From Ruminococcus albus 7 = DSM 20455 (lineage in GTDB: Bacteria; Bacillota; Clostridia; Oscillospirales; Ruminococcaceae), in NCBI RefSeq assembly GCF_000179635.2, contig NC_014824.1, positions 180,001-212,000 on the forward strand: a DNA stretch of 32,000 bases, in the 5' to 3' direction. Of the stretch, positions 12,443 through 32,000 are shown piece by piece; within the stretch, counting starts at the first letter, position 1; each line of letters starts with the position of its first letter. Made by a program: the position numbers and the translations under genes. Below the pieces are notes generated by a model, which worked only from the letters and a program-made list of their open reading frames with translations, ran no database searches and had not been told where the DNA came from.

Positions 12443-12447
12443 GAATT

Positions 12448-13789: not shown

Positions 13790-13833
13790 TAGCGCAGCAA
13801 TCTGTACATAATATAGATACCATTGTTTTTTGG

Positions 13834-17458: not shown

Positions 17459-17564
17459 GAATTCTTCCCCTTCCACTTGGGGATAAGAGCAAATGATAGT
17501 AAAAATGTGGAGAGAACAACGTCTTCACTCTAAAAACACCATATATTTTAAGGAGGTCTTTCAA

Positions 17565-18080: not shown

Positions 18081-18667
18081 TGGATATGCACAGAACTGCC
18101 AAAGAAATCGGACTGTTTCTCACGGCTATCAACCTGGTTGCTGTCATGGACAGTCCTGATGTTCAGGATAAGGTAGGGGCTTCAATGCCCCTGCCGGATT
18201 CTGACACTGAGAAGAAAGTAAGTGACATAGCTAAGTGGCTTACCGGTTTTGGCAAGCGTAAGTATATTTTCCTTACCCCCGAGATCGCATTGATTGAGGA
18301 GCTTCTCAGACAGACCGACAACAAAGCCGAAGTCACAATTGTTATTCCCTGTGATCTTGACCCTGAGATCAAGGAACGATTGCAGAATAATCTTCCTCAC
18401 GGAGCAATGGTGGAACTGCTCGAAGAACCTCATTTTCCTGCTATGCTCTATCCTAGCAACGGAATGCTTGTAACTTGTGGATACATGGGCGAAGATAGGG
18501 CGATGGTAATGGCAGATACCTACAGGATGGTAGAGCATTACAACAGTTTCCTCGGCAAGAAGGTCTTTATTCCTTATACTGAACTTACCTCAGCGGCTCG
18601 CTATGATGGCTGGATGGAGGTTGGACAGGACAGGATAACAGAGAAATGGAGGAGTGGACATGAATAA
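18080..18667 (+). CDS. hypothetical protein (195 aa)
   Basis: Its ATG overlaps the stop of the previous gene (TAATG), and its own stop overlaps the next gene. It bears only a weak resemblance to Rossmann-like DUF364 proteins, so I make no assignment. Confidence 0.6.
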   Translation: MDMHRTAKEIGLFLTAINLVAVMDSPDVQDKVGASMPLPDSDTEKKVSDIAKWLTGFGKRKYIFLTPEIALIEELLRQTDNKAEVTIVIPCDLDPEIKERLQNNLPHGAMVELLEEPHFPAMLYPSNGMLVTCGYMGEDRAMVMADTYRMVEHYNSFLGKKVFIPYTELTSAARYDGWMEVGQDRITEKWRSGHE

Positions 18668-20000
18668 TACAGCTGTAATCTCAAGCGGTGGTTTGAGGGA
18701 AAAGTTCAAGACTGAAAGAAAACAGAGTGCTTTGTTGGAAAAACTCAAAAAGAGTGGTTCGCTGATTCTTATCGCTGCGATGTTTGTCATCGGAAGTGTG
18801 GTAGCCCTCTTTTTCAATATTCCTATCAAGAGTGTAATGAGCAACTACTCCTATGATGTTCTGGTCATTTTGATCGTCATGGAGTTGTTTACCAACTTGA
18901 TTGCAGAGACCGGCATCATGCAGCTTTTAGCTATCAAGATAGCAGAAATGTCCAAGGGTAAGAAACGCCTGTGTCTCATGATGTTCGGTGGGATGATGTT
19001 CCTTATCAGCTCGTGCTTGAATAACATAACCGCAGTTATGATGATCCTGCCTATCGTGTTTGTGCTTCTAAAAACTCTTGAAGTGGACAAGAAGTATGTA
19101 TGTACGTTCTTTGCAGCTATTCTTGCTCTTAGTAACACTGGCGGAGCTGCGTCACCTGTTGGCGATTTTCCAGCAATTGTCATTATGACTAGTGGTATTA
19201 CTAGCTTTCTTAGCTATCTTACACACGCTTTTCCTCTCTTTGCAATCACTTCAGCGGTTCTGATCGCAGTTTGGGGATATCACGTAAAGAAAGAGAATGA
19301 TGATGGTGCATTAAGAAAGTTAGCTGTTATCAATCTTAAAAGCCAGTACAAAAACATCGAAATCCGATTTGACGTTCTGAAACTCCTTGCGGTTGTTTTT
19401 GTGGGAATGTTCCTTGCCTGGAGCTTTGTCCCTCAGAACATTATCCCCCCTGAGATCATCGCTATACTTGGATACGGAATCGCCATGGTCATCTGCTCGG
19501 TCAAAAAAATCAAGGTTCGCCAGATCATGGATCTTAAATCCGTTCTTACTATCGCTTCCTTCCTTTTCTTTGCGCAGGTAGTAAGTCAGACAGGTGTTCT
19601 GAATCTCCTTGCAGCTTATCTCCAGAATCATATTGATAACCCGAAAATCCTTGTAATGGTAATTATGGTCATTACATCACTTGTGGCAGGTATCTTTAGT
19701 GCTGGTCCGGCTGCTGCGGCGATGATGCCAATAGTTGTAAATATCTGTCAAAACTCTCTTACTGGACAGTCAGACTGGATTGCTGATGCCTATGCAGCAG
19801 CAATCTGTGCCGGTTCAAGTCTCTTTATGTGGTCTGCAACCGCCGGATTCATTTTGAGTGGCAAGGTAAACGGTGCAGGTATCGAAGCCGAAGATGGTAA
19901 GAAGACTTCTTGGGGAGTAGGTCAGTACTTGAAATATGGATTTGTGAATTACGCTATTCAGTTAAGTATCGCATTAGTGGTTATCGCAGTGGTATTATAA
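18660..20000 (+). CDS. ArsB/NhaD/CitMHS-superfamily ion or anion permease
   Basis: About 446 aa and polytopic. The segment FTNLIAETGIMQLLAIKIAEMSKGKKRLCLMMFGGMMFLISSCLNNITAVMMILPI is typical of this permease superfamily. GGAGG lies 7 nt before ATG 18660. Confidence 0.75.
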   Translation: MNNTAVISSGGLREKFKTERKQSALLEKLKKSGSLILIAAMFVIGSVVALFFNIPIKSVMSNYSYDVLVILIVMELFTNLIAETGIMQLLAIKIAEMSKGKKRLCLMMFGGMMFLISSCLNNITAVMMILPIVFVLLKTLEVDKKYVCTFFAAILALSNTGGAASPVGDFPAIVIMTSGITSFLSYLTHAFPLFAITSAVLIAVWGYHVKKENDDGALRKLAVINLKSQYKNIEIRFDVLKLLAVVFVGMFLAWSFVPQNIIPPEIIAILGYGIAMVICSVKKIKVRQIMDLKSVLTIASFLFFAQVVSQTGVLNLLAAYLQNHIDNPKILVMVIMVITSLVAGIFSAGPAAAAMMPIVVNICQNSLTGQSDWIADAYAAAICAGSSLFMWSATAGFILSGKVNGAGIEAEDGKKTSWGVGQYLKYGFVNYAIQLSIALVVIAVVL

Positions 20001-20018
20001 AGAAAAGACGCATAAAAG

Positions 20019-20051
20019 AGGCTGTTACACTTGGTTTTAGTGCAACAGCCT
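20019..20051. terminator. stem-loop between convergent genes
   Basis: The stem AGGCTGTT (20019-20026) pairs with AACAGCCT (20044-20051). The downstream sequence is moderately T-rich. Confidence 0.5.
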
Positions 20052-20059
20052 GCCTCTCT

Positions 20060-20272
20060 TTATTCGTCCTCATCACTACATTCATCCAAACCGTGAAGTA
20101 GCTGAATGTATACACACTCTGCACGTTCATGTTCCTCGCCATCTGTAGACATCATGAGTTCAAGGAAATACGCTTTCGCTTCTTCATAGTCCGTCCAGAC
20201 CTCTCGCTTGCCGTTGCAAACGGTAGTGACTTTGTTTGATCTCGGCACTGCCAATTCAGATATTTTCAACAT
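20060..20272 (-). CDS. small acidic hypothetical protein (70 aa)
   Basis: GGAGGG lies upstream of the ATG at 20270-20272 (MLKISELAVPR...). It resembles small conserved ORFs I have seen on Clostridia conjugative elements. No named family. Confidence 0.5.
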   Translation of the reverse strand: MLKISELAVPRSNKVTTVCNGKREVWTDYEEAKAYFLELMMSTDGEEHERAECVYIQLLHGLDECSDEDE

Positions 20273-20456
20273 AGCTGTTCCCTCCAAAAGATTTATTGTG
20301 AATCCATTATAGCGGATAATTCTTCCGGAGTCCAGATCTGCGGAATAATTGTAACCATTCTTGTGAAGTTCGCAGCAATTTCAAACGCTGATCCGGTGCA
20401 GAGCGCACATATCGGCTTTCGGTGCTGTCAGAATTTCTCCTGACAGCACTTTTCTG

Positions 20457-20801
20457 TCAATGCTTCAACTGCAAGACCTTCGTTTGCAGAAACAGCAGAG
20501 GGTCGATGATCTGAACGGCAAGGCTATCGACTTCTTCAATATCCTCCTTGTAAACCTTGTTCGTGACATTTGCACGACGGGCGATCTGGTTGATATTGTT
20601 GGCAACATTATTGGCGATGCATGCGAGCTCCTTCAGCTCATTTTCGCTGACCTGAGCGATGTATCCCTCAAAAATCATCACACGAACAAATCCACTGAGA
20701 CTGCTCATACCGCTGTTTTCAAACTTTTTCTTGATAGCCGCCATTCCTTCGGGGCTGACACGGACTTTCAGGTACAATGTACGCTTCTTTTCATCTTTCA
20801 T
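20457..20801 (-). CDS. mobC: MobC-family relaxosome accessory protein
   Basis: The ATG at 20799-20801 (MKDEKKRTLYLKVRVSPEG...) is preceded by AAGGAG. It carries the MobC signature NNVANNINQIARRAN. No relaxase gene follows it. Confidence 0.75.
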   Translation of the reverse strand: MKDEKKRTLYLKVRVSPEGMAAIKKKFENSGMSSLSGFVRVMIFEGYIAQVSENELKELACIANNVANNINQIARRANVTNKVYKEDIEEVDSLAVQIIDPLLFLQTKVLQLKH

Positions 20802-20875
20802 TTCTCGTGTTCTCCTTTTTATTATTTCCTTAATTCGGGGTTGTAGGGGCAGCGCCCTCTGCCAAGCCTTATGCA

Positions 20876-21727
20876 TTGTCGCAGGGCAGGGATAACGGTC
20901 ATAAGAATGCTAATCTTAATCGTTGGGGTATAGAGACTATTTCGGGTATTCTCAAAAAGCCTGAATATGCAGGTCACACTGTCAACTTCCGTACTCATGT
21001 GAAGTCCTACAAAAACAAGAAACGTGTGGATAACCCAAAAGAGGATTGGCTGATTTTCGAGAACACTCATGAAGCTATTGTCACTCAGCAGGAGTTTGAC
21101 TTGGTTCAGGAGCTTCGCAAGAACAAACGTCGCCCGACAAAACACGAGGAAGTCAATCCGTTTTCAGGCATCTGCTATTGTGCTGACTGCAGAAAGAAAT
21201 TGTATCTGTGCCGTTCGACAACTATGACTGCCGATCAGGAACATCTGAAATGTGGCACTTATGCAAAAGACAAGAACGACTGTACAATTCACTTCATCAG
21301 AACGATTGTTCTGAAAGAGATTATACTAGGTGAGTTGAACAAGATGATTTCCTTTGTCAAGGAGAACGAGGACGAGTTTGTGCAGGCAGCGATGGATAAT
21401 TCTGTTCAGAAGCAGTCCTCAGAGCTTGCCAAGTCCAGGAAGAAGCTGAGAGCAACCGTAGCAGAGCTGACCGCTTACATTGATACTGCCGAACAGAAGT
21501 CAGCCGATATGACCGCATTCATCATGGCAGTACAGAAATATGAGCATATCACGGAGCTGACACCTGAGATTATGCATGAACTGATCGAGAAGATCGTCGT
21601 TCACGCTCCTGACAAGAGCAGTGGTCACAGTACACAGGAGATCGAGATACACTATCGTTTCGATGTTGCCGTTACAACTGCTGTCGCTGACAGCATGAAA
21701 TACGACAAAAATAGAAAGGCTGCGTAA
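20876..21727 (+). pseudogene. 5'-truncated large serine recombinase (C-terminal two thirds only)
   Basis: The translation starts inside the recombinase domain (RWGIETISGILKKPEYAGH...THEAIVTQQEFDLVQ). It continues through the Zn-ribbon (CYCADCRKKLY...LKCGTY), a coiled-coil and the typical tail EKIVVHAPDKSSGHSTQEIEIHYRF. There is no N-terminal resolvase catalytic domain. The frame opens only at 20834. Confidence 0.75.
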
Positions 21728-21778
21728 CCGCCATGGTTACGCAACCTCATCTTCAAATCATAAAACTTCTTTACGAGT

Positions 21779-21809
21779 ACCCGCCTTTCGGCTGGCGGGT
21801 TTGTTGTTT
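21779..21809 (+). terminator. rho-independent terminator
   Basis: The stem ACCCGCC / GGCGGGT (21779-21800) is followed by TTGTTGTTT. Confidence 0.6.
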
Positions 21810-21826
21810 ATGAAGAAGAATGTGAT

Positions 21827-22389
21827 ATGATAGGTGTTGATAAGACAGAATTATCATTCGCAGATCAAGTAGATGCTGTAATGAATGGTAACTTCCCTTT
21901 CTATAGTGCGCTTGCGCTGGAAGTTTGTGATACACCCAAGATCTTAGAAGATATAGGCTGCGAATAATTGCCTATGTTGTACACTCAAAAGCATCTAAAG
22001 AACGCTTTAGCCTCAAAAGACAGGAAAAAGCATAAGCATGGTTTATGTATCAATCAAATCACTGCCTGACTTATTTAATTCAGCTGCGGTTATTGCGGAT
22101 TCACCAACGAAATCAAATAGCGCTATTGTTATTACATGTGAACTGGATAGAGATAATAATTGCATTTCGTATTTCAACAAACAAAAAAAGCCAAGATCTG
22201 TTCTCGTCTCTACTGCTCCAATTGCCGAAGGCGTTTAACAATCTTGACTATGATATTATCTTACATCAAAGCAACAATATTGTTAAGACCTCTGGTGTAA
22301 GAATAGATGGTATAGATAACAAGAACCAAATGACACTTGAAAGATGGGGAGAACAATACTCCGAATTAACAAGTTCATTTAACCCTTAA
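21827..22389 (+). pseudogene. decayed fragment of a conjugative-element polyvalent-protein domain
   Basis: A continuous protein-like reading (MIGVDKTELSFADQVDAVMNGNF...CDTPKILEDIGCE*LPMLYTQKHLKNAL...HGL) is broken by an in-frame TAA at 21965-21967. At least two frameshifts follow, producing track ORFs 22038-22238 and 22045-22389. The ...QLPMLYTQKHL... motif recalls a domain of large ICE or plasmid polyvalent proteins. This is from memory only. Confidence 0.5.
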
Positions 22390-22422
22390 TAATATTATAC
22401 AGCAAAATGATAGTATTGTCAA
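22387..22422 (-). promoter_or_regulatory. consensus promoter-like element on the minus strand (repeat X)
   Basis: The minus strand reads TTGACA (complement of 22417-22422), 17 nt spacer, TATAAT (complement of 22394-22399). By hand alignment it is 29/36 identical to 24406-24441. Confidence 0.4.
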
Positions 22423-22509
22423 TACCTGAGATGAAAAAATAAAAGCCAATTTACATCTAGTGTGCTCGGACTACAATCATTCGAGGGCTTTGATGTTCTT
22501 GACGATTTT

Positions 22510-22549
22510 GCCGCCGCACGCTCGTGACTTTAGTCATGAGTTAGGCGGC
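22510..22549 (+). repeat. LE-like subterminal hairpin
   Basis: The outer stem GCCGCC (22510-22515) pairs with GGCGGC (22544-22549). The inner stem CTCGTGAC (22521-22528) pairs with GTCATGAG (22533-22540) around a TTTA loop. Confidence 0.55.
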
Positions 22550-22567
22550 ATTTCCTGACATTCTGTT

Positions 22568-22639
22568 GTGCATGGTCGAGGGTATGTATATTCATTGTAA
22601 TACCATATCGTAAGAACTACCAAATACAGGAAGTCCTGA
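22568..22639 (+). pseudogene. tnpA: tnpA (Y1/HUH transposase) N-terminal stub
   Basis: The region reads VHGRGYVYSL*YHIVRTTKYRKS*. The YHIV...KYR block is the HUH motif region of IS200/IS605 TnpA. It is interrupted by TAA at 22598-22600 and terminated at 22637-22639. The rest of tnpA is absent. Confidence 0.65.
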
Positions 22640-22704
22640 TCATATACTTCGTCTTGTAAACTGTAAGCCTCAATTAAGAATGTCAGATACTATAATTCTT
22701 AAGT

Positions 22705-22740
22705 GAAAGACAGCTAAGTGAGTAAGATTAGCTGTCTTTC
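22705..22740 (+). other. 12-bp stem-loop
   Basis: GAAAGACAGCTA (22705-22716) pairs with TAGCTGTCTTTC (22729-22740). The T tract after it is weak, so terminator function is uncertain. Confidence 0.4.
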
Positions 22741-22778
22741 TGCATCTTAAACCTCATAAAAAAAATTTGAATTCTGTT

Positions 22779-22796
22779 TGTGTCACGCGTGACACA
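22779..22796. repeat. 18-bp palindrome TGTGTCACGCGTGACACA, copy 4
   Basis: Exact match. The flanks extend it to an imperfect palindrome of about 34 bp (TTCTGTTTGTGTCACG / CGTGACACAAACACAGAA). It lies inside the IS, between the tnpA stub and tnpB. Confidence 0.95.
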
Positions 22797-22813
22797 AACA
22801 CAGAACAACTTTT

Positions 22814-22858
22814 AAGTATATAAAATTTTAAATTCTTAAAAAAATCTACTATAATAAA
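22814..22858 (+). promoter_or_regulatory. paralogue of the parA promoter module, upstream of tnpB
   Basis: By hand alignment without gaps, 36 of the first 44 positions match 10408-10452, including AAAAATCT(G/A)CTATAATAA. TATAAT lies at 22850-22855, about 115 nt upstream of the tnpB ATG. Confidence 0.5.
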
Positions 22859-22969
22859 TATATATGGAATCCATCGTATTTTGTAGCAACTGTAAGCGAC
22901 AGAAGTCTTAAACAGGTAACAGATTACATTAATTCTCAAAAAAAGAAGTAGAAGGAGGGAGTCAGCAGT

Positions 22970-24295
22970 ATGCAGATATATACGACTTACAGCGTTAAGA
23001 TCAAGCATTACAACAACATCTTAAAAGATACCGTTATCGTATACAGACATGCTGTAGATTACCTTATCAAAGTATGTCTTGATAATTGGGATAACATTGT
23101 TACATTCAAAGGTGTGAGTAGACTCACATATATTGAAACACTGATCCATACTACAAAAGATAATCCCGATCCAATTTATGATTTTGATGCCAAATTCTAT
23201 AAGATGCCAAGCTATCTGCGCCGTGGTGCAATCAACGAGGCTATAGGCAAGGTATCATCTTACAAAAGCAATCACTATAACTGGGTTAATAATCCAGTTG
23301 GAAGAGAACCATCGTCTCCAAAAGCAGGATATACATTCCCTTCTATGTACCGTACAGTAATGTACAATCAGACCGGTGATTATACTGCCCAGATCAAAGT
23401 CTACATCCGTAATACATGGGACTGGATAACGATAAACCTTAAAAAGTCTGATATGGATTATATATACAGACATTGCAGTTTTCGCAAGCAATGCGCTCCA
23501 ACACTTCAAAAACGAAGCAAGGAGTGGTTTTTGGACTTTCCGTTTGAGGAAAAGGTCAAACTTGCAGATACATCTGTACACGAACAGACCATTGTTGCTG
23601 TAGACCTTGGGATCAACACCGCTGCTACGATTTCCGTAATGCGTTCAGATGGCACTATTCTTGGAAGGCATTTTTGTAAGCTTACCAAAGAAACAGACCA
23701 TCTGATGCATAGCATTAACCGTATAAAAAAAGCTCAGCAGCATGGTAACTATAAAACACCAAGGCTTTGGGCAAAAGCCAAAGGAATCAATCACGACATT
23801 GCCACTAAAACAGCTGCCTGCATCGTAGATATAGCCGTTCTTTATAATGCAGATGTTATTGTATTTGAGCATTTAGACAAGAACGGTAAGGTCCGCGGTT
23901 CTAAAAAGCAGAAGCTCAAGCTGTGGCGCAGTCAGGAAGTACAGTCTATTGTAACGAATAAAGCTCACAGACTAGGTATGAGAGTAAGCCGTATCTGTGC
24001 ATGGAATACGTCACGCTTTGCCTACGATGGCAGTGGTTTTGTACTTCGTGGTAAATTCGGTGGTTTCAATACCTATGAGCTATGCAAATTTCAAAATGGC
24101 AAGACCTACAACTGTGATCTATCTGCTTCGTATAATATCGGGGCAAGATATTTCATACGTGAAATATTAAAATCCTTGGATGAGAATTCAAGGTTGCTCA
24201 TTGAGGCAAAAGTCCCTCAATGCTGTAAGAGAAGCACCTGCACGTTCTCTACCTTAGTTAACCTGAATGCGGAAATTATTGCTCAAACAGCATAA
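22970..24295 (+). CDS. tnpB: TnpB-like RNA-guided nuclease (IS200/IS605 accessory protein)
   Basis: 441 aa, with GGAGGG upstream of the ATG. The RuvC triad is readable: VAVDLGIN (D), VIVFEHL (E) and NCDLSASYNIGARYF (D). The segment where the zinc finger normally sits has no CxxC pairs (RICAWNTSRFAYDGSG...ELCKFQNGKTYNC). Confidence 0.85.
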   Translation: MQIYTTYSVKIKHYNNILKDTVIVYRHAVDYLIKVCLDNWDNIVTFKGVSRLTYIETLIHTTKDNPDPIYDFDAKFYKMPSYLRRGAINEAIGKVSSYKSNHYNWVNNPVGREPSSPKAGYTFPSMYRTVMYNQTGDYTAQIKVYIRNTWDWITINLKKSDMDYIYRHCSFRKQCAPTLQKRSKEWFLDFPFEEKVKLADTSVHEQTIVAVDLGINTAATISVMRSDGTILGRHFCKLTKETDHLMHSINRIKKAQQHGNYKTPRLWAKAKGINHDIATKTAACIVDIAVLYNADVIVFEHLDKNGKVRGSKKQKLKLWRSQEVQSIVTNKAHRLGMRVSRICAWNTSRFAYDGSGFVLRGKFGGFNTYELCKFQNGKTYNCDLSASYNIGARYFIREILKSLDENSRLLIEAKVPQCCKRSTCTFSTLVNLNAEIIAQTA

Positions 24296-24421
24296 TTTTC
24301 TGAGTTCAGGCTGTATGGTAGAAACGTAGTCCGCCTGCCTAAAGTGGGCGTGTCCGCTAGGACACTATAGGAAGCACGCGACTTTAGTCGTGTGAGGCTT
24401 CACTCTAATAATAGTATATAG
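24170..24421 (+). ncRNA. putative omega RNA (reRNA) scaffold plus about 16-nt guide
   Basis: This rests on established IS200/IS605 architecture: the omega RNA overlaps the 3' end of tnpB and runs through the RE into flanking DNA. The terminal hairpin GAAGC-ACGCGAC-TTTA-GTCGTGT-GAG-GCTTC lies at 24371-24400. The 5' end and the exact RE-guide junction (24401-24406) are guesses. Confidence 0.45.
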
Positions 24422-24441
24422 CAAAATGACGATAATATCAA
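24406..24441 (-). promoter_or_regulatory. promoter-like element on the minus strand (repeat X'), abutting the IS right end
   Basis: The minus strand reads TTGATA (complement of 24436-24441), 17 nt spacer, TATACT (complement of 24413-24418). It would fire antisense into the RE and omega-RNA region. Confidence 0.35.
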
Positions 24442-24738
24442 GTCTTTCGATTTAAAAAATTCTGCGAACACCTCAGAGATCAAAAGGGAGCCTGCAACAG
24501 ATACAACCGATGAAAACGGCATAGTATTTTCTATAATACAGACAAAAAGCCCCTGCATACAGGGCATGGGTAAATGCGTTTTGAATTTTACCACATTATT
24601 GAAAATGTAATAATGACTCATTTTTTTGTAAAGAGGCTGCTGCGGATGCAACAGCCTCTTATTGTTACTCAAATTCGTCGCGGCATAGCTCATCTAGAGT
24701 TACTTTTTCACTTAAGAATATGATAGCTTTTTCATGTC

Positions 24739-24849
24739 CTATTTCTCTATCTCCCTAGCAAGTGAGAACATATCCTGATAGGGTACAAAGTCCAAGGGGT
24801 ACTTAGCTATAGCATTTTCGATTTTATCTATCAAGATGTTATTATTCAT
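24739..24849 (-). CDS. possible 36-aa ORF
   Basis: GGAGGTG lies 6 nt upstream of the ATG at 24847-24849. The translation is MNNNILIDKIENAIAKYPLDFVPYQDMFSLAREIEK. It is short with no recognised family, so support is weak. Confidence 0.25.
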   Translation of the reverse strand: MNNNILIDKIENAIAKYPLDFVPYQDMFSLAREIEK

Positions 24850-24922
24850 AATTACACCTCCATAAAAAGAGGGGCTACCCCTTGCAGGATAGTCCCATTG
24901 GACTTAACCGAACTAAATTTGG

Positions 24923-25420
24923 TCAATCATCTATCATTTCAAATAACTCTATATCATTTTCCATAGCAAGCTGTTTAGCATTCTTAGTAAACTTAGAATT
25001 GGTAATAACCGCAGCCTTATTAGCGTTATAGTGCTTACGAGCAGCGCATACCTCTTGTACTGCCTTCACTCCGACAGTACCTTTGTACCGCTTACACTGA
25101 AATACCCAGCTGTTACCACGCCAATCCCTTGCTGTCAGATCAGCACCATAGTCACCTGTTATAGGCGTAGTCTGCACCTTCCGAAAACCTCTACCTAATA
25201 GATACTTAGCACAGTATAGTTCGTAGTCCCTACCTGACATATTTTCAGTCTTCTTTGACTTATTGATCAGATATAACAAGCAGGCTATTATTAGTGCAAT
25301 GACTAATGATACTACACTATTACCATACTGCTTGTTTTCCAGATCCGTTTTGAATATTACCAGAAAGAAGACCAAAAATATAACTAGGATAATGTTTACC
25401 AGGTCTTTGACAGCTTTCAT
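24923..25420 (-). CDS. membrane-anchored Mrr_cat-type restriction-endonuclease-fold protein
   Basis: 165 aa. Two N-terminal hydrophobic helices are followed by GRDYELYCAKYL...GDYGADLTARD...WVFQCKRY...AAVITNSKFTKNA, the Mrr catalytic-domain pattern (D...QCK). Its start lies 4 nt after the recombinase stop. Confidence 0.75.
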   Translation of the reverse strand: MKAVKDLVNIILVIFLVFFLVIFKTDLENKQYGNSVVSLVIALIIACLLYLINKSKKTENMSGRDYELYCAKYLLGRGFRKVQTTPITGDYGADLTARDWRGNSWVFQCKRYKGTVGVKAVQEVCAARKHYNANKAAVITNSKFTKNAKQLAMENDIELFEMIDD

Positions 25421-25424
25421 ATGA

Positions 25425-26186
25425 TCACCCTTTCAAAATCGGTTCATGTACCCCCTGTACCCAGTTCATTTCCTTTCCATACTTATACATTCCCTGATAT
25501 AAAGGTTTATTGTTAGCTATGCTTCTCGCACTTGTATTCTGGAATTTAGTCCCCTTACGAGTTCTATATCCGAGATCATTCGGTTCATCAGCTATGGTAA
25601 GCATCGGTATTTTTTCATCGAGACGCTTAAACACATATTCAACTATAGGCTTTTCTTCATCGTTGATAATAAGCTGTCCATGCTCTATCTTATAACCATA
25701 AGGACACCTTCCACCTGCATAGCCACCACACTGAGCTTTCATACTCCTACCTTTCCCGGTACGAAGTGCTATGTTCTTACGCTCTTGCTCAGCCACAAAT
25801 TGCAGCAAAGCTCTATAGATATTGGCAAACTCCCCACCCTCAACAAAATCTTCTTTGGTAGAAAGCAGTTTTATATTCTTCTTTTCGAGAGTGTACAGAT
25901 AGTAAAAGTACAACTTAGTATCACGAGCAACTCTATCATTCTTGAATACTATCACTGCCTCAAATGGTGGGTTTGTTATATCACCATAAAGTATTTCATC
26001 GAAAGCAGGACGATTATCGGAAGCAGCACTCACTTCATCGATCTTCCAATCGACTATGGAATAATCATGCTGATCAGCATAGGACAATATCTCTTTACGC
26101 TGAACATCTATACCATACTTATCATCGTTAGCCTGCTGAACTGTTGAAACTCTTATATAGCCTATTGCTTTCTTAAGATCTTTCAT
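25425..26186 (-). CDS. serine recombinase, N-terminal portion of the large-serine-recombinase type (253 aa)
   Basis: The catalytic motif AIGYIRVSTVQQ and the resolvase domain are followed by the first part of the recombinase domain (GGRCPYGYKI...). The protein ends right after GVHEPILKG, with no Zn-ribbon or coiled-coil. Confidence 0.8.
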   Translation of the reverse strand: MKDLKKAIGYIRVSTVQQANDDKYGIDVQRKEILSYADQHDYSIVDWKIDEVSAASDNRPAFDEILYGDITNPPFEAVIVFKNDRVARDTKLYFYYLYTLEKKNIKLLSTKEDFVEGGEFANIYRALLQFVAEQERKNIALRTGKGRSMKAQCGGYAGGRCPYGYKIEHGQLIINDEEKPIVEYVFKRLDEKIPMLTIADEPNDLGYRTRKGTKFQNTSARSIANNKPLYQGMYKYGKEMNWVQGVHEPILKG

Positions 26187-26438
26187 AATGATACCACTTT
26201 GTTGTATTTAGTATAGCATGTTTGTATTTACTTGCCAAGAGGTTTTTGCAAGTTAAATGTTTTTTTTGCGGAATTTTCGACACTCATACGCCCGGCTTAT
26301 ATACCCTCATTCATTCCCCCGGTACCCGATTTAACTGCTAACATGCAGCAGCCGGAACCAGATCGCATAAATATATACAATTGATATATGTTAGTATTAT
26401 TTAAAATGCTGATTTGTATTTAATCTTGAAATTAATAA

Positions 26439-26466
26439 CCTCTGCTTGGAAGCTTCCAAGCAGGGG
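26439..26466 (-). terminator. terminator of the three-gene minus-strand operon
   Basis: A perfect 22-bp palindrome, CTGCTTGGAAGCTTCCAAGCAG (26442-26463), is extended by C/G pairs. On the minus strand it is followed by TTATTAATTT. It lies about 100 nt downstream of the stop at 26569. Confidence 0.65.
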
Positions 26467-26568
26467 CTACTTTTGGTGGCGCAAAAAATCTCACTCCCCT
26501 ACCCCGATAGTCTCTACTGTTCGAGCGTATGATCAGTTTACTTTGATAGTTCTTATGCAGATCTGATT

Positions 26569-28116
26569 TTAAAAAGGAAATTTAATTTTCGCCTTAGCTG
26601 AAAAATCCGAGAAAGCATTTTTTACATCATCGAGTGCTTCCGGTACTACTTCAGAAACTGTATCCACCACTCCAGATGCTAGATCCTGTGCTTTTTCAGC
26701 AATGATTTCAGCTCCTTCAGCACCAAGTTCTACGGCTGTTTGATATGCTTCAGTAGCAAGTGCGCATCCTACTGTTCCGCCAACAATAGAACCTCCAACA
26801 CTGCCAACTGGTCCTGCAACAGTACCGATAGCTCCACCAACAGCTCCACCTACCACGCTTCCCGTGACAGCAGCCGCATTTTCTCCCAAATTATATGCCA
26901 GTTCCTTTCCGCCAATTTTTCCCTGTGCATAATCTGAGATATCATCATATGATTCAACTGCGTAAGAAACCGCTGCTGCCGGAAGGCATGATCCTCCGAC
27001 TTTGCTTATCAAAGCACTCGAACTCTTACTCATAGTCTGTGATACAGCTGTTGAAATAAAAGTTGTTCCATAAGCTATCCCTCCAGAAGCTGCTGTATCC
27101 TTAGTAACATCTACAAATGCTTCCTTAGGAGTTATTTCACCTTCCATAACCTTATTAACATTGTCAACTGTAGATACGCACGCAGTTATCGAAGCAGATA
27201 AAGCGGCACTTTCAAGTCCGGCTTTGTTGCCGACACGAGCTGTTTCCTGTGCAAATATTTTAGCCGTATACAACTTCGGATGCTTTGTAGCAGCTATTGC
27301 TTCGCTTGAAGTAACAGTACTCTTTTCGATCATCTGATCGATCTTATTGTACCTATCGATAGAAGCCTGTTTTTTTTCAGCAAGCTCTCTATTACCGCTT
27401 TTTGCTGCATGCCGATACTGTTCCTCAAGTTTTTCGATTTTTTCAGGAATAAGTTGTTTAACATCATCATAATAATCTTTAGGTATCTCCATTTTATCAA
27501 CCGCGCCATCATTGAAGTATTTATCAAATGATTTTGATTTCAGCTTTCTAAGGCACTCTTCTCCATTTTTACCGACGAATTTGACTTGAACTCTTTCAAC
27601 AATGTTTCCATTGCTGTCTATGCGAACTTTATCTACATACTGGTCGTTCTTTGCAATACCTTTAATTGCTTTATCTGCAAGGTCATCTACACGATAGGTG
27701 GTGATGCCTGAGCCTGAGATCTTTGCTTGCATATTCTCTTTTGCTGTACTAATGACCTCTGCTGAAAAGCCTGAATGTTGTTTTAGATTTTGGTGATAAT
27801 TATCCGGATTTATCTTCCATGCCCCTATGTCTTTCAGTCCTAGCGTCTTTTTTCCATCACCAAGATCCTCTCCGCTATACATTTGCTTTGCTGTATCTAA
27901 AAAATTATTTCTAAAAGCAGATAAATCGGTGTTTTCAGCAAGATCAACATCCAGCCAGTTTGTAATATTTTTGTCGATAGATTCATTTACACCGCTGAAA
28001 ACTCCAGCTTCAGGTTTTATTGAACTTTCAAAACCACTGTGCAAAATTTTCATTTTAGATTCAATATCAGAAATACTGTTATCTAATCCACTTGTTTCCG
28101 GTTTATCAAAATTCAT
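26569..28116 (-). CDS. hypothetical 515-aa protein with a C-terminal glycine-zipper hydrophobic region
   Basis: Its ATG overlaps the stop of the upstream ATPase gene (TAATG), and GGGGGAG lies upstream. The C-terminal region reads GSVVGGAVGGAIGTVAGPVGSVGGSIVGGTVGCALA (about aa 415-455). The N-terminal soluble domain contains GFSAEV...NDQYVDKVRID...ERVQVKFVG, a possible D...QxK nuclease-fold motif (weak). Confidence 0.75.
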   Translation of the reverse strand: MNFDKPETSGLDNSISDIESKMKILHSGFESSIKPEAGVFSGVNESIDKNITNWLDVDLAENTDLSAFRNNFLDTAKQMYSGEDLGDGKKTLGLKDIGAWKINPDNYHQNLKQHSGFSAEVISTAKENMQAKISGSGITTYRVDDLADKAIKGIAKNDQYVDKVRIDSNGNIVERVQVKFVGKNGEECLRKLKSKSFDKYFNDGAVDKMEIPKDYYDDVKQLIPEKIEKLEEQYRHAAKSGNRELAEKKQASIDRYNKIDQMIEKSTVTSSEAIAATKHPKLYTAKIFAQETARVGNKAGLESAALSASITACVSTVDNVNKVMEGEITPKEAFVDVTKDTAASGGIAYGTTFISTAVSQTMSKSSSALISKVGGSCLPAAAVSYAVESYDDISDYAQGKIGGKELAYNLGENAAAVTGSVVGGAVGGAIGTVAGPVGSVGGSIVGGTVGCALATEAYQTAVELGAEGAEIIAEKAQDLASGVVDTVSEVVPEALDDVKNAFSDFSAKAKIKFPF

Positions 28117-31100
28117 TATATCTCCCCCTTTGCTGTCAGTATATAACAGATACTGTCATATTCGTCATCAGAAAATCTCTTCAGTTTATTTTTTACAAGC
28201 GCTTTCAGTTCTTTAGAACCTTCGATTCTCATAAAAGTCTTGTCATCTATATCTATTACAGCTTGTACAAATTTTTTCAGTATAGGTATATCCTGAGTTT
28301 TCCATACCATAATACCACCATAAAGGTCATACTCTTCTATCAGAGAAGATATTCTGTTTTTGATATCACGAGATATATTAAGCACCTTTAATGCTGCCCG
28401 CAGGCTACTTTCTTCTATCTTCTTTCTCTTTATCCACGGCTGCATAAGCATACATATCAATTCTGAACGTGCTTCTTTGATCGGCTTTATCTCTGTTCTG
28501 GATTTGTATACATACGGCGAATCGATGATGTTTGCTTTATTTATCATAGTAAGCACAGGATTAATCCAGTCATTTTGATATACCACAGCAACACCACTGG
28601 GGAGTTTCGCTATCTCATTTACCTGATCCTCGGTCAATCCGACAGAGCGTCCAACAGCTTCCCTGTCATTTGCTTCCGGTGTTCTCAGAACTATCTTTGT
28701 GTTTGTATTCTTTATGGCTGCAATATCTACCGATGAAGGCGACTGATCAACGATTATAAAGCCTTCACCATATGTTCTTATTTCAGCTATAGTGTTTGTA
28801 AGCATTTCAACGGATTTTCCGATCAATTCTGATGAACCGCCATTACCCGTATTTTTAAGTAAGTTGTGTGCTTCTTCTAGGACAGTTATGTGCTTAAGTC
28901 CGTTATTATTTTCTGTTTTCCTGTCAACACGATATTCATTCAGGATATATACGATCAGTCCCATGAGAAGTGCTTTTGTTTCAGTTGATTTCACTCTTGA
29001 TATGTCTATTATACAGTTATTATCAAACAGTTTATAATACGGGGTCTGATCTGTCGTGAAAATATATTTGTTTAATCCTACCGTAAGCGATTTTACTCTT
29101 GTCAGCAACGCACCTCTGTAATTTGATTTTATATCAGAAGCATAATCCGAATTATCTATTAACATCCCGAGCTGTTCGGAAAGAATTTCAAAGTCCGGAT
29201 ATTCCGCAACATCTCCTTCAAAAGTTGAAGAGCCAAGATCCCAACCTACAGCTTCGTAGGAGCGAAGTATAGCATCCTTAAAAAACGCAGGCATTGCATC
29301 ATACATCGGCCAGCATACTCCGAATATTTCCACCAGACCGTCAACATGCTCTAGTACATGGATAGATTCAGGGAATCGGAACGGATTAAGATTTATAAGA
29401 TCTGATATTTTGGGATTAGTAGAATATACATTAACATCATCCCAGTTTCCAAAAACATCTTTGTATTCACCTTTAGCAGGTTCGATAACAAGAAAAGGTA
29501 TTTCATCCTGATGCAGCTCTGCCAGCATCTGATAGACGGCATTGCTTTTTCCCGAACCGGTCGAACCGGTAATGAATGTATGCATATTAAGGCTTCTGTT
29601 ATCAAGCTCAACTTTTTTCTCTGTTATCTGTCCGAGATCAAATACTCTGCCAAGTAACATAGTATCATCAGATTGGTCTTCTTCGCTTTTTGAAAATAAT
29701 CTATATGAATTAACTTCTTTTCCGAATTCTGCGTGTTCAATTACCGGTAGTCCGGGAACCGTAGTCCTTGGAAGTCCCAGGTGCAAGCCCAGATCCTTTC
29801 CACTAACTGATGTGGCTGCATTCACAAGTACATTTCCTCCATACACAAAGCGAGGATGCATAAATCTGGAAAGGTACATCGTCAGATCTGAAAAATTCCC
29901 CACAGTCTGCGGATTATTTCTTCTCCACGAATTTATAGCTGAAACTTCTCTTCCTGATTTTTCACCATTCATAAGTGACCGATAATTGCTGGCAGCAATT
30001 TCAGCAGCTGACATATCATCAGAGATAAAATAACCTGCTGTGTCCCACATACCGTAACTGTCAAATTCATCAGTTCTTTTAAGATTTTCATCGATAAGCG
30101 CCATAAGATCAACGACTGTCTTATTCTCTGTTGTGGACATAACCGAGTTTGATGTTGTGGTCGTTACCTGTTCATTCGGAGCAAGGGAGTTGATAAAACC
30201 ATTAAGCTGACCTGAGATCTGTCCGCCAAACATTGCTCCTGTACTCAATCCTCCTGCCTTACCAATAGCTGCAGCTCCACCTATGGCACCACCTACAACA
30301 CCGGCAATTGATAATACAGCACCCGTTATCATAGCAGCCTTCTGTTTTCCGTTCATTTCAGCAAAAGATCTGGAATGTGAAGATGAATCAGTTGTACTGT
30401 CAGTATACTGAACTCTTGCCAACGGTGATAGCTTGGTATACAGATCCTGATAACTTTTTCTCAGCATCTGAACCGTCTGCGGAGACTGATTTTGTGCGAT
30501 TATAATACCTGTGTATTGTCTGCCATACATTGCAAGAGCCAGTTTTTCCAAGCCCTGAACAAACTGTTCATTTGCCTGTTCCGTATTTTTACAATTTCCA
30601 ACAACACTTACCGATGCAATATTGTTCTGATCTAATATTTTTCTTGACAGTTTTCCAATGCTCGTCCTGTCTTCGCTAACTATTTTAACTCCGGGGAAAT
30701 TTCCGATAAGTGTATTTTTCAGTGTATCACCAAGCGTCACCATTGAACGCTTTTCAGGATCATCATCTGATGTATTGCTCCTTACCCCGAGATAAAAATT
30801 TGTTTCATTACCATCAGAATCAATTATTATGAAAACCGATGCGTTATATGTAGATAATGTATTAAAGACCGTAGTAAATTTATTAGTAACAGACTCGCCC
30901 TTACGATAAACCATCTCTGTGATCCTATAAATACGAATATTATTTATTAGTTCATTTTCAAGAGAAGGTAGATCTCCAGCCGGAGCGATCTCCATTTCAT
31001 TAAGTCGTGCCAGATATTTTTTTCTTATACCCTCATCTATTATCTCAAGACGATTATCTATCGTCATTTCTTCGGTCGATGTCATCACATCAGAGTTATA

Positions 31101-31118
31101 GGTAGCTATTTCGTCCAT
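28116..31118 (-). CDS. 1000-aa HerA/FtsK-type (DUF87-like) P-loop ATPase with N-terminal domain and internal glycine-zipper segment
   Basis: Walker A FITGSTGSGKSNAV (about aa 515, encoded around 29541-29576). Walker B ITVLEEAHNLL (about aa 745, around 28859-28890). Downstream block IIVDQSPSSVDIAAIKNTNTKIVLRT. The Gly/Ala-rich hydrophobic segment AAMITGAVLSIAGVVGGAIGGAAAIGKAGGLSTGAMFGG lies at about aa 260-297. The start lies 6 nt after the upstream stop. Confidence 0.8.
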   Translation of the reverse strand: MDEIATYNSDVMTSTEEMTIDNRLEIIDEGIRKKYLARLNEMEIAPAGDLPSLENELINNIRIYRITEMVYRKGESVTNKFTTVFNTLSTYNASVFIIIDSDGNETNFYLGVRSNTSDDDPEKRSMVTLGDTLKNTLIGNFPGVKIVSEDRTSIGKLSRKILDQNNIASVSVVGNCKNTEQANEQFVQGLEKLALAMYGRQYTGIIIAQNQSPQTVQMLRKSYQDLYTKLSPLARVQYTDSTTDSSSHSRSFAEMNGKQKAAMITGAVLSIAGVVGGAIGGAAAIGKAGGLSTGAMFGGQISGQLNGFINSLAPNEQVTTTTSNSVMSTTENKTVVDLMALIDENLKRTDEFDSYGMWDTAGYFISDDMSAAEIAASNYRSLMNGEKSGREVSAINSWRRNNPQTVGNFSDLTMYLSRFMHPRFVYGGNVLVNAATSVSGKDLGLHLGLPRTTVPGLPVIEHAEFGKEVNSYRLFSKSEEDQSDDTMLLGRVFDLGQITEKKVELDNRSLNMHTFITGSTGSGKSNAVYQMLAELHQDEIPFLVIEPAKGEYKDVFGNWDDVNVYSTNPKISDLINLNPFRFPESIHVLEHVDGLVEIFGVCWPMYDAMPAFFKDAILRSYEAVGWDLGSSTFEGDVAEYPDFEILSEQLGMLIDNSDYASDIKSNYRGALLTRVKSLTVGLNKYIFTTDQTPYYKLFDNNCIIDISRVKSTETKALLMGLIVYILNEYRVDRKTENNNGLKHITVLEEAHNLLKNTGNGGSSELIGKSVEMLTNTIAEIRTYGEGFIIVDQSPSSVDIAAIKNTNTKIVLRTPEANDREAVGRSVGLTEDQVNEIAKLPSGVAVVYQNDWINPVLTMINKANIIDSPYVYKSRTEIKPIKEARSELICMLMQPWIKRKKIEESSLRAALKVLNISRDIKNRISSLIEEYDLYGGIMVWKTQDIPILKKFVQAVIDIDDKTFMRIEGSKELKALVKNKLKRFSDDEYDSICYILTAKGEI

Positions 31119-31124
31119 CTTTGT

Positions 31125-32000
31125 TTACCCCCTTTCGATCAGATGAAGTTTATCATTTATCTGAGAAAGCCAATCCATATCATTCTGCAAAAGCTGTTCA
31201 TCTTGCGAAAGCTGTTTTGAGACGATCTGCTTTTCTTCAGTCTTTTGCTTTATTATCTGATGTATACGATTATGATAAACATTTGCAAGAACAGCATAAT
31301 ACTTTGTAAGAGTTTCTGTCCAGTTATCGACAACTCTCTGACAAATAGGACCATATTCTTCCACTGCCAGTGTTCTCCACGCTTCATATGTATATGTTAC
31401 TTCCATTACCTTATCATTATTAGCATCAGCATTGTTTTTCAACCTATCGAAAAGTGATGCCTTGCGAACTATATATTGTTCTGTTTTGATATCCATAAAC
31501 TTTTCTGTAAGTGATGGAGTAATATACTCCTTTGCTTCGTAATTGAAATCCACAGTTGGTTCAAAATCCGGGTCCATTTTTGTATCAGAAAACCATTTTC
31601 CGAATAGTTGATCGATCTCTGCGCTTTTTGCCACAGAAGCACTATCTATTTCCGCTACAAATTCAGAATAAAATTTATCAAGCATCGTATTAAATTCTGT
31701 AGCCATTGCAATTGCTTCATCCATATTAGTAGTCTTTGTCTTTTTCTTTCTCCACTCGGAAATTTTGAAGAAAAATGATTTCATTGAAGATACATATTCC
31801 GTAGGTATGATCAGATTATCACGCTGATTGAAAAGATCATCAGCGTTTTTTAGAGTATTTATATCGTTTTCAAGTGAATCGATCTTCCTATGTATACCTG
31901 AATTTACTATCTTACTCTTTTCATTCTCCTCATCTACATCCGCCTGTAACTTACTGATAGTACCTTTTAAAATCCCAAGAACTTTTGTAATGTATTCAGT
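31125..32000 (-). CDS. coiled-coil-rich protein, 5'-partial (runs off the window)
   Basis: The frame of track ORF 31125-31784 stays open, with no stop or start codon, for all 72 codons up to base 32000. The gene therefore begins beyond the window. The visible 291 aa are rich in heptad-like E/K/Q/L. No family recognised. Confidence 0.7.
   Translation of the reverse strand, partial: TEYITKVLGILKGTISKLQADVDEENEKSKIVNSGIHRKIDSLENDINTLKNADDLFNQRDNLIIPTEYVSSMKSFFFKISEWRKKKTKTTNMDEAIAMATEFNTMLDKFYSEFVAEIDSASVAKSAEIDQLFGKWFSDTKMDPDFEPTVDFNYEAKEYITPSLTEKFMDIKTEQYIVRKASLFDRLKNNADANNDKVMEVTYTYEAWRTLAVEEYGPICQRVVDNWTETLTKYYAVLANVYHNRIHQIIKQKTEEKQIVSKQLSQDEQLLQNDMDWLSQINDKLHLIERG

Follow-up and report, generated by a model that had tools for sequence, protein, structure and literature searches.

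A mobile three-gene cassette of Ruminococcus albus 7 that appears to combine a GTPase-dead dynamin-family protein, a membrane HerA-type ATPase and a polymorphic nuclease toxin

Background

What purpose is served by three tightly spaced minus-strand genes, here called A, B and C in their order of transcription, that occupy the last part of a 32,000-nucleotide stretch of Ruminococcus albus 7 DNA (contig NC_014824.1, positions 180,001 to 212,000; hereafter the window)? A preliminary description of this DNA, made from its letters alone, had read the products as a coiled-coil protein, a HerA/DUF87-type ATPase with a Gly/Ala zipper, and a zipper protein with a nuclease-like domain. It had offered defence or translocation as the two possible roles, an alternative that brackets both of the readings that lead in the present study.

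The encoded proteins (ADU23914, ADU23915 and ADU23916) reside on a 420,706-bp replicon, a megaplasmid. They belong to a large and highly mobile family, but their annotations go no further than 'ATP-binding' or 'hypothetical': B is an 'ATP-binding protein' and C is 'hypothetical', while UniProt gives A (ADU23916) the name 'Dynamin family protein'. The comparisons reported here largely establish that the genes constitute a mobile conflict cassette, composed of a dynamin-family scaffold that has lost its GTPase, a membrane HerA-type ATPase and a polymorphic nuclease toxin.

Results

A conserved three-gene unit

The minus strand carries three open reading frames (ORFs): C (26569-28116, 515 amino acids), B (28116-31118, 1000 amino acids) and A, which ends at 31125 and whose frame is uninterrupted up to base 32000 (292 codons). 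Gene A does run past the end of the window, since a metagenomic contig that is 95.8-99% identical (L001) carries the complete gene at 543 amino acids. A GGGGG tract stands about 11 nucleotides upstream of the B start codon, within the 3' end of A, and B overlaps C by the sequence TAATG, directly before which lies AAAGGGGGAG. The same tight spacing or overlap of the three genes is seen again in nearly all of 79 related loci, obtained in a scan with one genome per species. On the evidence of the sequence, chance is excluded as the origin of these operon features; the reading frames, the junctions and L001 together confirm what had been described as three coupled genes, the first of them leaving the window.

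All-against-all clustering of neighbouring families over 81 non-redundant loci found A, B and the third gene to be the only families conserved throughout. The next family occurs in 7 loci, and the neighbourhoods are otherwise unrelated. A adjoins B in essentially every complete locus, and the third gene then overlaps B or lies a few bases away, so the idea that the linkage of the three genes might not be conserved, raised beforehand as a reason to give up the notion of a system, fails. Homologues number more than 1700 for B, 368 for C and 263 for A. Most of the 79 loci come from Lachnospiraceae and Oscillospiraceae. Further hosts are Bacillus/Neobacillus, Lactococcus, Streptococcus suis, Periweissella, Coriobacteriia and Atopobiaceae, together with a few Synergistaceae and one metagenome-assembled genome each from Bacteroidales and Kiritimatiellia. 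The main branch of the family lies almost wholly in single-membrane bacteria (Bacillota, Coriobacteriia, Atopobiaceae), and full-length relatives about 70% identical occur in gut and rumen Lachnospiraceae and Oscillospiraceae as well as in Bacillus, streptococci, lactococci and Coriobacteriia.

Polymorphic toxins at the third position

The preliminary description had treated the third gene as a fixed subunit, and it is here that it has to be revised most. Among 65 third-gene products, Pfam recognized Endonuclea_NS_2 in 18, LHH in 7, Colicin-DNase/WHH in 5 and NERD in 1, and the remainder carry the PD-(D/E)xK-like domain found in the window. These sequence comparisons largely show the third gene to be a polymorphic toxin position at which at least four nuclease families are exchangeable and which, in relatives, is accompanied by immunity genes. 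Recognition of such a position changes the most likely function of the entire cassette.

What the third-gene products have in common is a leader of about 45 amino acids with the motif [FL]H..[FY].S.[IV].P..G.[FY]G; a jackhmmer search started from the N-terminus of a Bacillus-type toxin retrieves residues 3-51 of C in the window. Two architectures follow this leader. Type I, represented by the window and 47 other complete loci, continues with the nuclease and ends in a helical, small-residue-rich domain of about 230 amino acids with a terminal glycine zipper, a domain present in 48 type-I toxins. Type II, found in Bacillus, Dorea, Lactococcus and others, has a Gly/Ala hydrophobic segment after the leader, then an E/K/A-rich helical spacer of 80-130 amino acids and, at the C-terminus, the nuclease.

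The central domain of C is predicted to be a nuclease, putatively of the PD-(D/E)xK-like kind. Across 40 homologues (46-94% identity) the residues E120, D144, D145, D162, K163, Q177 and K179 are invariant and E174 is conserved in at least 90%, which yields the pattern E174-x-x-Q177-x-K179. The AlphaFold (AF2) model has a predicted local distance difference test score (pLDDT) of about 90 across most of residues 100-270 and displays the alpha-beta-beta-beta-alpha-beta order of PD-(D/E)xK enzymes. Some type-I relatives have an LHH or Endonuclea_NS_2 domain at this internal position, a context that argues strongly for the domain in the window being a nuclease as well. The domain itself has no usable match in Pfam, the PDB, NCBIfam or PADLOC; hhalign of the C family against one NERD-type toxin gave no signal, and Foldseek with the whole model of C returned helical-repeat noise only, the low-confidence C-terminal half dominating the search. 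Beyond the nuclease, residues 286-515 hold hydrophobic Gly-rich runs at 299-317, 365-387 and 412-462, match DUF6861 and Gly-zipper_Omp weakly and are modelled with low AF2 confidence. They probably form a membrane-inserting module. A third protein with a zipper and a nuclease-like domain, as first proposed, is thus borne out by the hydrophobic runs and the conserved residues.

Immunity genes and exchange of toxin cassettes

Small genes lie 3' of the toxin in a number of loci. Eleven of 25 encode SUKH/SMI1_KNR4 proteins, and others are YezG-like, DUF6985-like or DUF7832-like. All of these belong to the immunity families that were defined for polymorphic toxins (Zhang et al. 2011, PMC3113570; PMC3482391). 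Sixteen toxins, of type II or short, have the nuclease at their C-terminus, and every one of them is followed by an immunity-type gene. In the clustering of neighbours, no gene family recurs upstream of A that could serve type-I loci as an immunity gene.

Comparison of loci that are 93-94% identical exposes the exchange directly: DNA homology breaks off within the toxin gene, at about residue 120-176, and returns, if ever, only 3' of the immunity gene. This was seen between Dorea and Bariatricus (L040 against L051) and between Bacillus marasmi and both Neobacillus sp. and Bacillus sp. DNRA2 (L038 against L067 and L029). The loss of homology spans the end of the toxin and the immunity gene, which implies that both are replaced together.

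One Lachnospiraceae locus (L039) contains a second type-I toxin gene at 2075-3676, 6 kb upstream of A, and a toxin-like fragment at 15075-15390, downstream of the immunity gene. This additional gene and fragment could be extra or orphan toxin cassettes.

Protein B is a HerA-type ATPase with a membrane segment

The ATPase motifs of B (Walker A GSTGSGKS at 518, VLEEAHNLL at 746, IIVDQSPS at 788 and NTKIVLR at 806) and a match to Pfam DUF87 (PF01935; 45 bits against a cut-off of 23.2, E 1.8e-11, residues 497-719) uphold the original assignment to the HerA/DUF87 type. All PDB matches at E < 0.001 are HerA/DUF87-type ATPases, with E about 1e-8; we take these solved relatives to be SIR2-HerA- and DUF4297-HerA-type assemblies, that is, complexes of DNA repair and defence. 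The Pfam families TrwB_AAD_bind, FtsK_SpoIIIE and P-loop_TraG match the P-loop region alone, over about 55 residues (497-554 for FtsK_SpoIIIE). The best NCBIfam match is the DNA-translocating ATPase CedD (E 8e-28), at 97 bits against a cut-off of 600 and covering the ATPase core only. Further scores are 49.7 bits against 800 for the antiphage HerA model NF042943, 19.9 against 643.1 for VirB4 (TIGR00929) and 19.4 against 521 for TraD (TIGR02759). PADLOC returned its HerA and mad8 models only, each covering parts of residues 490-865.

In front of the ATPase core lies a long region that was used on its own (residues 1-490) in a phmmer search of 1.84 billion representatives. The search yielded 973 cluster representatives at 50% identity; full-length matches are about 1000-1200 amino acids long, and the region always accompanies this ATPase. 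Residues 351-400 are 87% identical between loci. The Gly/Ala zipper of the earlier account is evident at residues 257-292, where the Kyte-Doolittle maximum reaches 1.99 (at 267-285), 56% of residues are G, A, S or T, and small-xxx-small motifs are stacked. With the weaker stretch that follows, up to residue 310, it is probably a membrane anchor or hairpin. Taken as a whole, B is an ATPase of the HerA/FtsK class with a single ATPase domain, probably anchored in the membrane and presumably hexameric.

Pairwise identity over 51 loci is 75-90% in the core of B and 31-48% in the last 130 or so residues, the sole fast-evolving part of the protein. Divergence of this tail follows that of the toxin leader (Spearman 0.54; partial correlation 0.49 when controlled for the B core). 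The core and the leader are correlated at 0.06 after control for the tail, and A tracks neither tail nor leader (0.06-0.07). Such co-variation fits recognition of the leader by the tail. The C-terminal region of EssC is variable too, a parallel to the tail of B.

Protein A is a dynamin-family protein without GTPase motifs

Neither sequence nor profile searches of Pfam, the PDB, NCBIfam and PADLOC gave a match for A. Its AF2 model (pLDDT 88, predicted template-modelling score 0.75) begins with two small alpha/beta domains and continues as a long helical stalk tipped by a beta-hairpin. The best Foldseek matches of this model are LeoA (at the top, 1.6e-4), MxA, IniA, the Campylobacter pair DLP1/2, dynamin, Mgm1 and BDLP, with probabilities up to 0.99 and template-modelling scores of just 0.13-0.22, values as low as would be expected of models of elongated multi-domain proteins. 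Profile comparison points the same way: hhalign aligned the A family end to end with a sister family that bears Dynamin_N (98.75%, E 1.5e-16, 521 columns), and the initial 82 or so residues of the sister first gene align with A at 38% identity (E 3e-11).

The G1 (GxxxxGKS/T), G3 (DxxG) and G4 (N/TKxD) motifs, that is the P-loop, DTPG and NKxD, are absent from A, and in the profile-profile alignment the segments of the G domain are deleted or degenerate. By sequence and model, then, A is a dynamin-family protein that has lost its GTPase. The term 'coiled-coil protein' used at first falls short, as A is more than a coiled coil.

A sister branch retains an active dynamin

Six loci (L079-L083 and L086) form a sister branch in which B is about 43% identical and the first gene, at 763-786 amino acids, encodes a Dynamin_N domain (E about 1e-16) behind the N-terminal region that it shares with A; the GKS, DTPG and NKxD (NKMD) motifs of this domain are intact. 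The branch encodes one or two GTPase-active dynamin genes, the second one upstream and in tandem, and one or two small proteins (164-290 amino acids) between dynamin and ATPase. Five of the small proteins that were aligned (172-194 amino acids) are helical and have a glycine-zipper tail of the same kind, so that B, the toxins and a stand-alone small protein of the sister branch all contain Gly-zipper hydrophobic segments. The sister toxins are short (156-317 amino acids) and contain HNH/WHH, Endonuclease_NS_2 or NERD domains, each followed by a small gene; a WYL-type regulator stands upstream in some loci. PADLOC gave partial, weak matches for the sister dynamins (LeoBC 3e-5, LeoA 3e-14).

Annotated examples are found on the Lactococcus cremoris plasmid p158B (L089) and on the IncI plasmid pTW10590_133 of enterotoxigenic Escherichia coli (ETEC; L090). 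In both, two genes for a 'dynamin family protein' are followed by one or two hypothetical genes, an ATP-binding protein, an HNH/ENDO VII nuclease and a small gene, annotated as hypothetical on the first plasmid and as SMI1/KNR4 on the second. Of 5426 complete E. coli genomes just 1 contains the operon, and no other gives a megablast match to it.

Read together, the two branches suggest an underlying system of four to five elements: a dynamin or dynamin-like protein, a glycine-zipper membrane element, a HerA-type ATPase, a nuclease and sometimes an immunity protein. Judged by its gene content, the window holds a streamlined form, with the zipper as part of the toxin protein and with a GTPase-dead dynamin. 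The parts of this form are placed on the DNA in Table 1.

Table 1. Features of the cassette, numbered from the first base of the window
Feature	Position	Strand	Remarks
Gene A, 3' part, helical stalk	31125..32000	-	Residues 253-543 of 543; beta-hairpin tip at about 425-456
A-B junction	31119..31134	-	GGGGG ribosome-binding site within the end of A, TAA, 6-nucleotide spacer, ATG of B at 31118; read directly
B, residues 1-255	30354..31118	-	Conserved N-terminal domain; no Pfam or PDB match; 55-75% pairwise identity across loci
B, residues 257-310	30189..30350	-	Gly/Ala-zipper hydrophobic segment AAMITGAVLSIAGVVGGAIGGAAAIG, then a weaker Gly-rich stretch
B, residues 311-490	29649..30188	-	Conserved middle domain before the ATPase core; no family match
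B, residues 491-865	28524..29648	-	Single HerA/FtsK-type P-loop ATPase; Walker A at 518, Walker B at 746
B, residues 866-1000	28119..28523	-	Variable C-terminal tail; candidate module for recognition of the toxin leader
C, residues 1-51	27964..28116	-	Leader common to third-gene toxins, LHSGFESSIKPEAGVFSG in the window; ATG within TAATG
C, residues 96-285	27262..27831	-	Predicted PD-(D/E)xK-like nuclease domain, then a long helical hairpin
C, residues 286-515	26572..27261	-	Helical, small-residue-rich domain with a long glycine zipper (about 405-460) at its end
GC-rich hairpin	26439..26466	unassigned	12-bp stem with 7 GC, about 100 nucleotides past the C stop

Genomic neighbourhood

DNA homology to L001 stops at 26490, which marks the 3' edge of the cassette. 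The hairpin beyond it probably marks the end of the operon. It had been called a strong terminator, in which 'strong' is slightly overstated: a hairpin scanner places it on the plus strand, and when read on the minus strand it has one A.C mismatch and a weaker T-tail.

Relative to L001, in which the cassette abuts parB/parA, the window has an insertion of about 14 kb (12388-26489) that separates the cassette from these genes. Its cargo includes a 574-amino-acid Trans_reg_C protein, an ABC transporter, two ORFs of 195 amino acids, a CitMHS permease, a MobC/NikA-like gene, two recombinase fragments, a TnpB-like gene and an Mrr nuclease. A neighbourhood of recombinase, nuclease and insertion-sequence genes had been correctly recognized from the start (serine recombinase fragment, Mrr and TnpB-like genes). 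The two serine recombinase fragments, at 25425-26186 on the minus strand and 20876-21727 on the plus strand, lie in opposite orientation about 3.7 kb apart and flank the TnpB-like and Mrr genes. One consists of a Resolvase domain and the start of a Recombinase domain, the other of a Recombinase end, a Zn-ribbon and DUF4368; they may be a single disrupted or inverted recombinase or two remnants. Directly 3' of one fragment, 24923-25420 (minus strand) encodes 165 amino acids with two N-terminal hydrophobic helices and Mrr_cat (E 2e-27), by its domains a membrane-anchored Mrr-type nuclease.

On the far side of the insertion, 5717-6574 and 9546-12387 encode a Phd/PIN toxin-antitoxin pair, a LexA-like HTH-S24 repressor, ParA and ParB, share 82-88% DNA identity with L001 and look like a conserved plasmid backbone. 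A TMEM175-like channel (7373-7918) and an AAA_14/DUF4143 gene (8216-9397) are interspersed in it. At 1489-4203 (minus strand), a 904-amino-acid protein combines a Ser/Thr protein kinase domain with a STAND/NB-ARC-type NTPase and is a candidate immune sensor.

Elsewhere too, the triad is a mobile cassette, and variable regions or defence regions are where it is often inserted; some loci have metabolic surroundings. In L091 (1-22029) and L020 it sits inside the transfer region of an integrative and conjugative element (ICE), with Maff2, TrbL_2, PrgI, VirB4-like, NlpC/P60 and CD1107-like genes on one side and TopoIII, LPD16, ArdC-N, MobC and relaxase genes on the other. The ICE of L091 encodes its own VirB4. 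No marker of a type IV secretion system (T4SS) or ICE lies within 10 kb of the cassette in 77 of the 81 loci; the other 4 have one. The window and L001 contain none either.

In three loci (L095-L097), genes for a stand-alone SIR2 protein and for an AAA_21 ATPase accompanied by two small ORFs are among the neighbours about 1.2-5 kb upstream of the triad, and MazG-like, NMN transporter, AAA_28/NadR-like and radical SAM genes lie 4-10 kb downstream of it. These neighbours could constitute an NAD-centred defence or counter-defence cluster.

Discussion

A possible toxin-delivery apparatus

The reading towards which we lean, as a nearly balanced call that tips slightly to the side of doubt, is that of an ATP-driven apparatus that recognizes a polymorphic nuclease toxin by its leader and exports it or delivers it to competitors. 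In such a scheme, the leader would dock on the variable C-terminal tail of B, which, held in the membrane by its Gly-zipper, would spend ATP on threading or inserting the toxin into or across the cytoplasmic membrane. Threading would strip off the immunity protein, where one exists, and the glycine-zipper domain of the toxin would insert into the membrane. Dynamin-like A might assemble on the membrane at B and there organize or remodel the site, acting as a static collar or promoting the release of toxin-carrying membrane. The nuclease would in this way be deployed outward, against neighbouring bacteria that lack immunity. Release of a vesicle type would let a nuclease on the inner face reach the target cytoplasm and would also let the sister branch work in E. 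coli. It is possible, though somewhat doubtful, that the cassette embodies an unrecognized export or toxin-delivery pathway of single-membrane bacteria, built from a HerA-type ATPase, a leader and a dynamin-derived scaffold.

Four points favour outward deployment. Interbacterial toxins are characterized by the swapping, between near-identical loci, of LHH, WHH, colicin-DNase and Endonuclease_NS_2 modules that have SUKH/YezG partners; the combination of leader, ring ATPase and tightly bound immunity protein is suggestive of threading; the spacer of type II resembles a stalk that spans a cell wall; and the main branch is nearly confined to single-membrane bacteria.

A number of observations weigh against delivery. 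There is no signal peptide. The ATPase domain of B is nearest to HerA proteins of defence systems, and the PDB search with B found no EssC, FtsK, VirB4 or VirD4 structure at E <= 1. B has a single strongly hydrophobic stretch (257-292), which makes a channel conjectural, and A has no membrane segment. The correlation between tail and leader could stem from physical linkage and co-inheritance of adjacent DNA alone. Defence-type genes are often found beside the cassette, both in the window (Mrr and the STAND kinase) and elsewhere (SIR2 with AAA_21, Cas3 in an integrase-bounded island, a TIR protein and a DUF4011-MTES_1575 helicase-nuclease). The sister branch is carried by plasmids of bacteria that have two membranes (E. 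coli, Treponema), and a single inner-membrane ATPase could not free a toxin from such cells.

The distribution of immunity genes raises a further difficulty. Just 5 of 48 type-I toxins adjoin an immunity-type gene, leaving 43 without, and the window has no minus-strand ORF of at least 50 amino acids between C and the recombinase fragment, hence no immunity gene, which is awkward for a toxin directed at kin. That architecture and immunity genes go so strictly together points to the C-terminal zipper domain as a substitute in the protective role; we infer that the toxin of the window is kept harmless in its producer by the C-terminal membrane domain, through sequestration or cis-inhibition.

Alternative readings

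Some of these difficulties are points in favour of an inward role, namely defence against phages or plasmids, the chief rival reading, which we consider possible but rather doubtful. B and the nuclease would stand at the membrane where foreign DNA enters; dynamin-like A would sense or stabilize perturbed membrane, and B, in the manner of HerA in NurA-HerA, SIR2-HerA or DUF4297-HerA, would assemble with and activate the nuclease or feed it DNA. Either the invader or, as in abortive infection, the cell itself would be destroyed, and proteins of the immunity type would be safety catches. The kinship of B with HerA-type ATPases and the PADLOC HerA and mad8 matches to its core agree with such a role, as does the lack of an immunity gene in most type-I versions, the window included. 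So do the frequent defence-type neighbours, which in the window extend to a toxin-antitoxin pair, the occurrence of the cassette on plasmids, ICEs and islands, and a host range of the wider family that takes in bacteria with one membrane as well as bacteria with two. Among dynamins, the Eleos operon is validated in defence (10.1101/2022.05.11.491447). The weak LeoA/LeoBC matches of the sister dynamins and the WYL regulator upstream in some of their loci also fall on this side.

Set against defence is the speed with which these modules are exchanged between 93%-identical loci, a behaviour that marks interbacterial toxins. We know of no precedent in described defence systems for SUKH/YezG-type immunity genes together with LHH, WHH or colicin-DNase modules. 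PADLOC offers no system model that fits A, C or the full length of B; a leader, an ATPase and a tightly bound immunity protein point to translocation rather than activation in situ; and the long charged spacer of type II has no obvious intracellular role.

It is quite unlikely that the cassette is instead a DNA-handling device of mobile elements, in which B would pump DNA, as FtsK, TraB and archaeal Ced do, and a membrane nuclease would process it for uptake, transfer, entry exclusion or plasmid competition. The nuclease would be likened to NucA with its inhibitor Nin, Endonuclea_NS_2 being the family of Bacillus subtilis NucA, whose inhibitor gene adjoins it. The CedD match of B and the position of the cassette beside parAB on a megaplasmid, or in an ICE transfer region in L091 and L020, are in keeping with such a device, but the CedD score is far below its cut-off and confined to the ATPase core, ICE markers are nearby in just 4 of 81 loci, and no other genes for DNA uptake or transfer are conserved with the cassette. 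A housekeeping nuclease, moreover, would not be swapped among four unrelated families with matching immunity genes. That B should be a VirB4 or coupling-protein paralogue with VirB6-like partners in a conjugative T4SS is scarcely credible, and we reject it: the TrwB_AAD_bind and P-loop_TraG matches are limited to the surroundings of Walker A, the VirB4 and TraD scores lie far below their cut-offs, markers are near just 4 of 81 loci, and a full T4SS immediately upstream, which had been named beforehand as an arrangement that would identify a conjugation component, is seen in only 2 of about 90 loci (the triad there lying between T4SS genes and TopoIII/ArdC/relaxase), in an element with its own VirB4, which argues that the system is not part of a T4SS.

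Implications

Were the delivery apparatus to prove true, it would represent a new pathway of antagonism in the dominant gut Bacillota and would give HerA-class ATPases and bacterial dynamins a role in trafficking. A new export pathway would add a further number to the list of secretion systems; it would be common among the Bacillota of gut and rumen, and no earlier one would have employed a dynamin. Should defence be the answer, the cassette would tie together two validated themes of defence, the HerA-effector complexes and the Eleos dynamins, and would show that polymorphic-toxin and immunity modules can be enlisted as effectors of immunity. In both cases it provides a simple three-gene model for the function of bacterial dynamins and accounts for the recurrent glycine-zipper module.

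Comparison with known systems

The initial impression that the trio corresponds to no named defence, conjugation or secretion system is borne out by Pfam, PADLOC, NCBIfam and the clustering of neighbours. The mode of action proposed above for delivery would be functionally analogous to the export of LXG toxins by EssC in the type VIIb secretion system (T7SSb), from different parts. Both have a membrane ATPase of the FtsK/HerA class (EssC/YueA in T7SSb) beside polymorphic nuclease toxins (PMC3113570, PMC3482391), toxins with a conserved N-terminal targeting region, immunity genes of the SUKH/YezG types and an ATPase C-terminus whose variation tracks the substrate, and the main branch is found mostly in single-membrane bacteria. 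B, however, has one HerA/DUF87 domain rather than the three FtsK-like domains of EssC and has no FHA domains. The leader is a different motif of about 45 amino acids, the partner is a dynamin-family protein and the toxins carry glycine-zipper modules. None of 65 toxins has a WXG100 or LXG match in Pfam, and no partner of the EsaA, EssA, EssB or EsaB type is conserved in the neighbour clustering. Membership of the type VII systems was rejected on the single ATPase domain, the lack of WXG/LXG and the lack of conserved partners.

With NurA-HerA, SIR2-HerA and DUF4297-HerA the cassette shares the HerA-type core, its nearest solved relative, a nuclease next door and a mobile setting that is often like a defence island. 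B, in contrast, is twice as long, having an unassigned N-terminal region of 490 amino acids and a membrane segment, and the nuclease is polymorphic, often with an immunity gene, and comes with an extra dynamin-family partner. No NurA, SIR2 or DUF4297 gene is conserved with the cassette across the 81 loci, and B does not match the HerA defence model over its full length. Restriction of the Dnd/Dpt kind, whose DndH has a HerA/FtsK domain, was rejected as a candidate; PADLOC gave HerA and mad8 only, and the architecture described in PMC10853773 is unrelated.

The likeness to LeoABC of ETEC and to Eleos lies in A, whose top structural match is LeoA, and in the tandem dynamins of the sister operons. 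Eleos is a two-gene dynamin operon and an experimentally validated defence system that needs GTPase activity (preprint 10.1101/2022.05.11.491447), whereas A lacks the motifs for it; nor does Eleos contain a HerA ATPase, a nuclease or an immunity gene. According to work cited by Millman et al. in the same preprint (10.1101/2022.05.11.491447), the leo genes of ETEC are in a pathogenicity island and leoA is required for maximal secretion of heat-labile enterotoxin. Eleos membership was rejected, as the PADLOC LeoA and LeoBC models miss A and the window has one, GTPase-dead, gene.

Polymorphic toxin systems, such as the S8-PTS defined in 2022 (PMC9424270), resemble the cassette in their N-terminal trafficking part, linker and exchangeable C-terminal nuclease, in the adjacent immunity gene and in the replacement of cassettes by recombination. 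They differ in that none of the trafficking classes of PMC3482391 includes a dead dynamin and a membrane HerA ATPase, that catalogue naming the YueA/EssC pump alone among FtsK/HerA ATPases, and in that the commonest architecture of the cassette has an internal nuclease, then a membrane domain, without an immunity gene. Full-text searches of the literature turned up no publication in which a HerA/DUF87 ATPase or a dynamin is connected with polymorphic toxins. On balance of these likenesses and differences, we class the cassette as a variant of either the polymorphic toxin systems or the HerA-effector systems.

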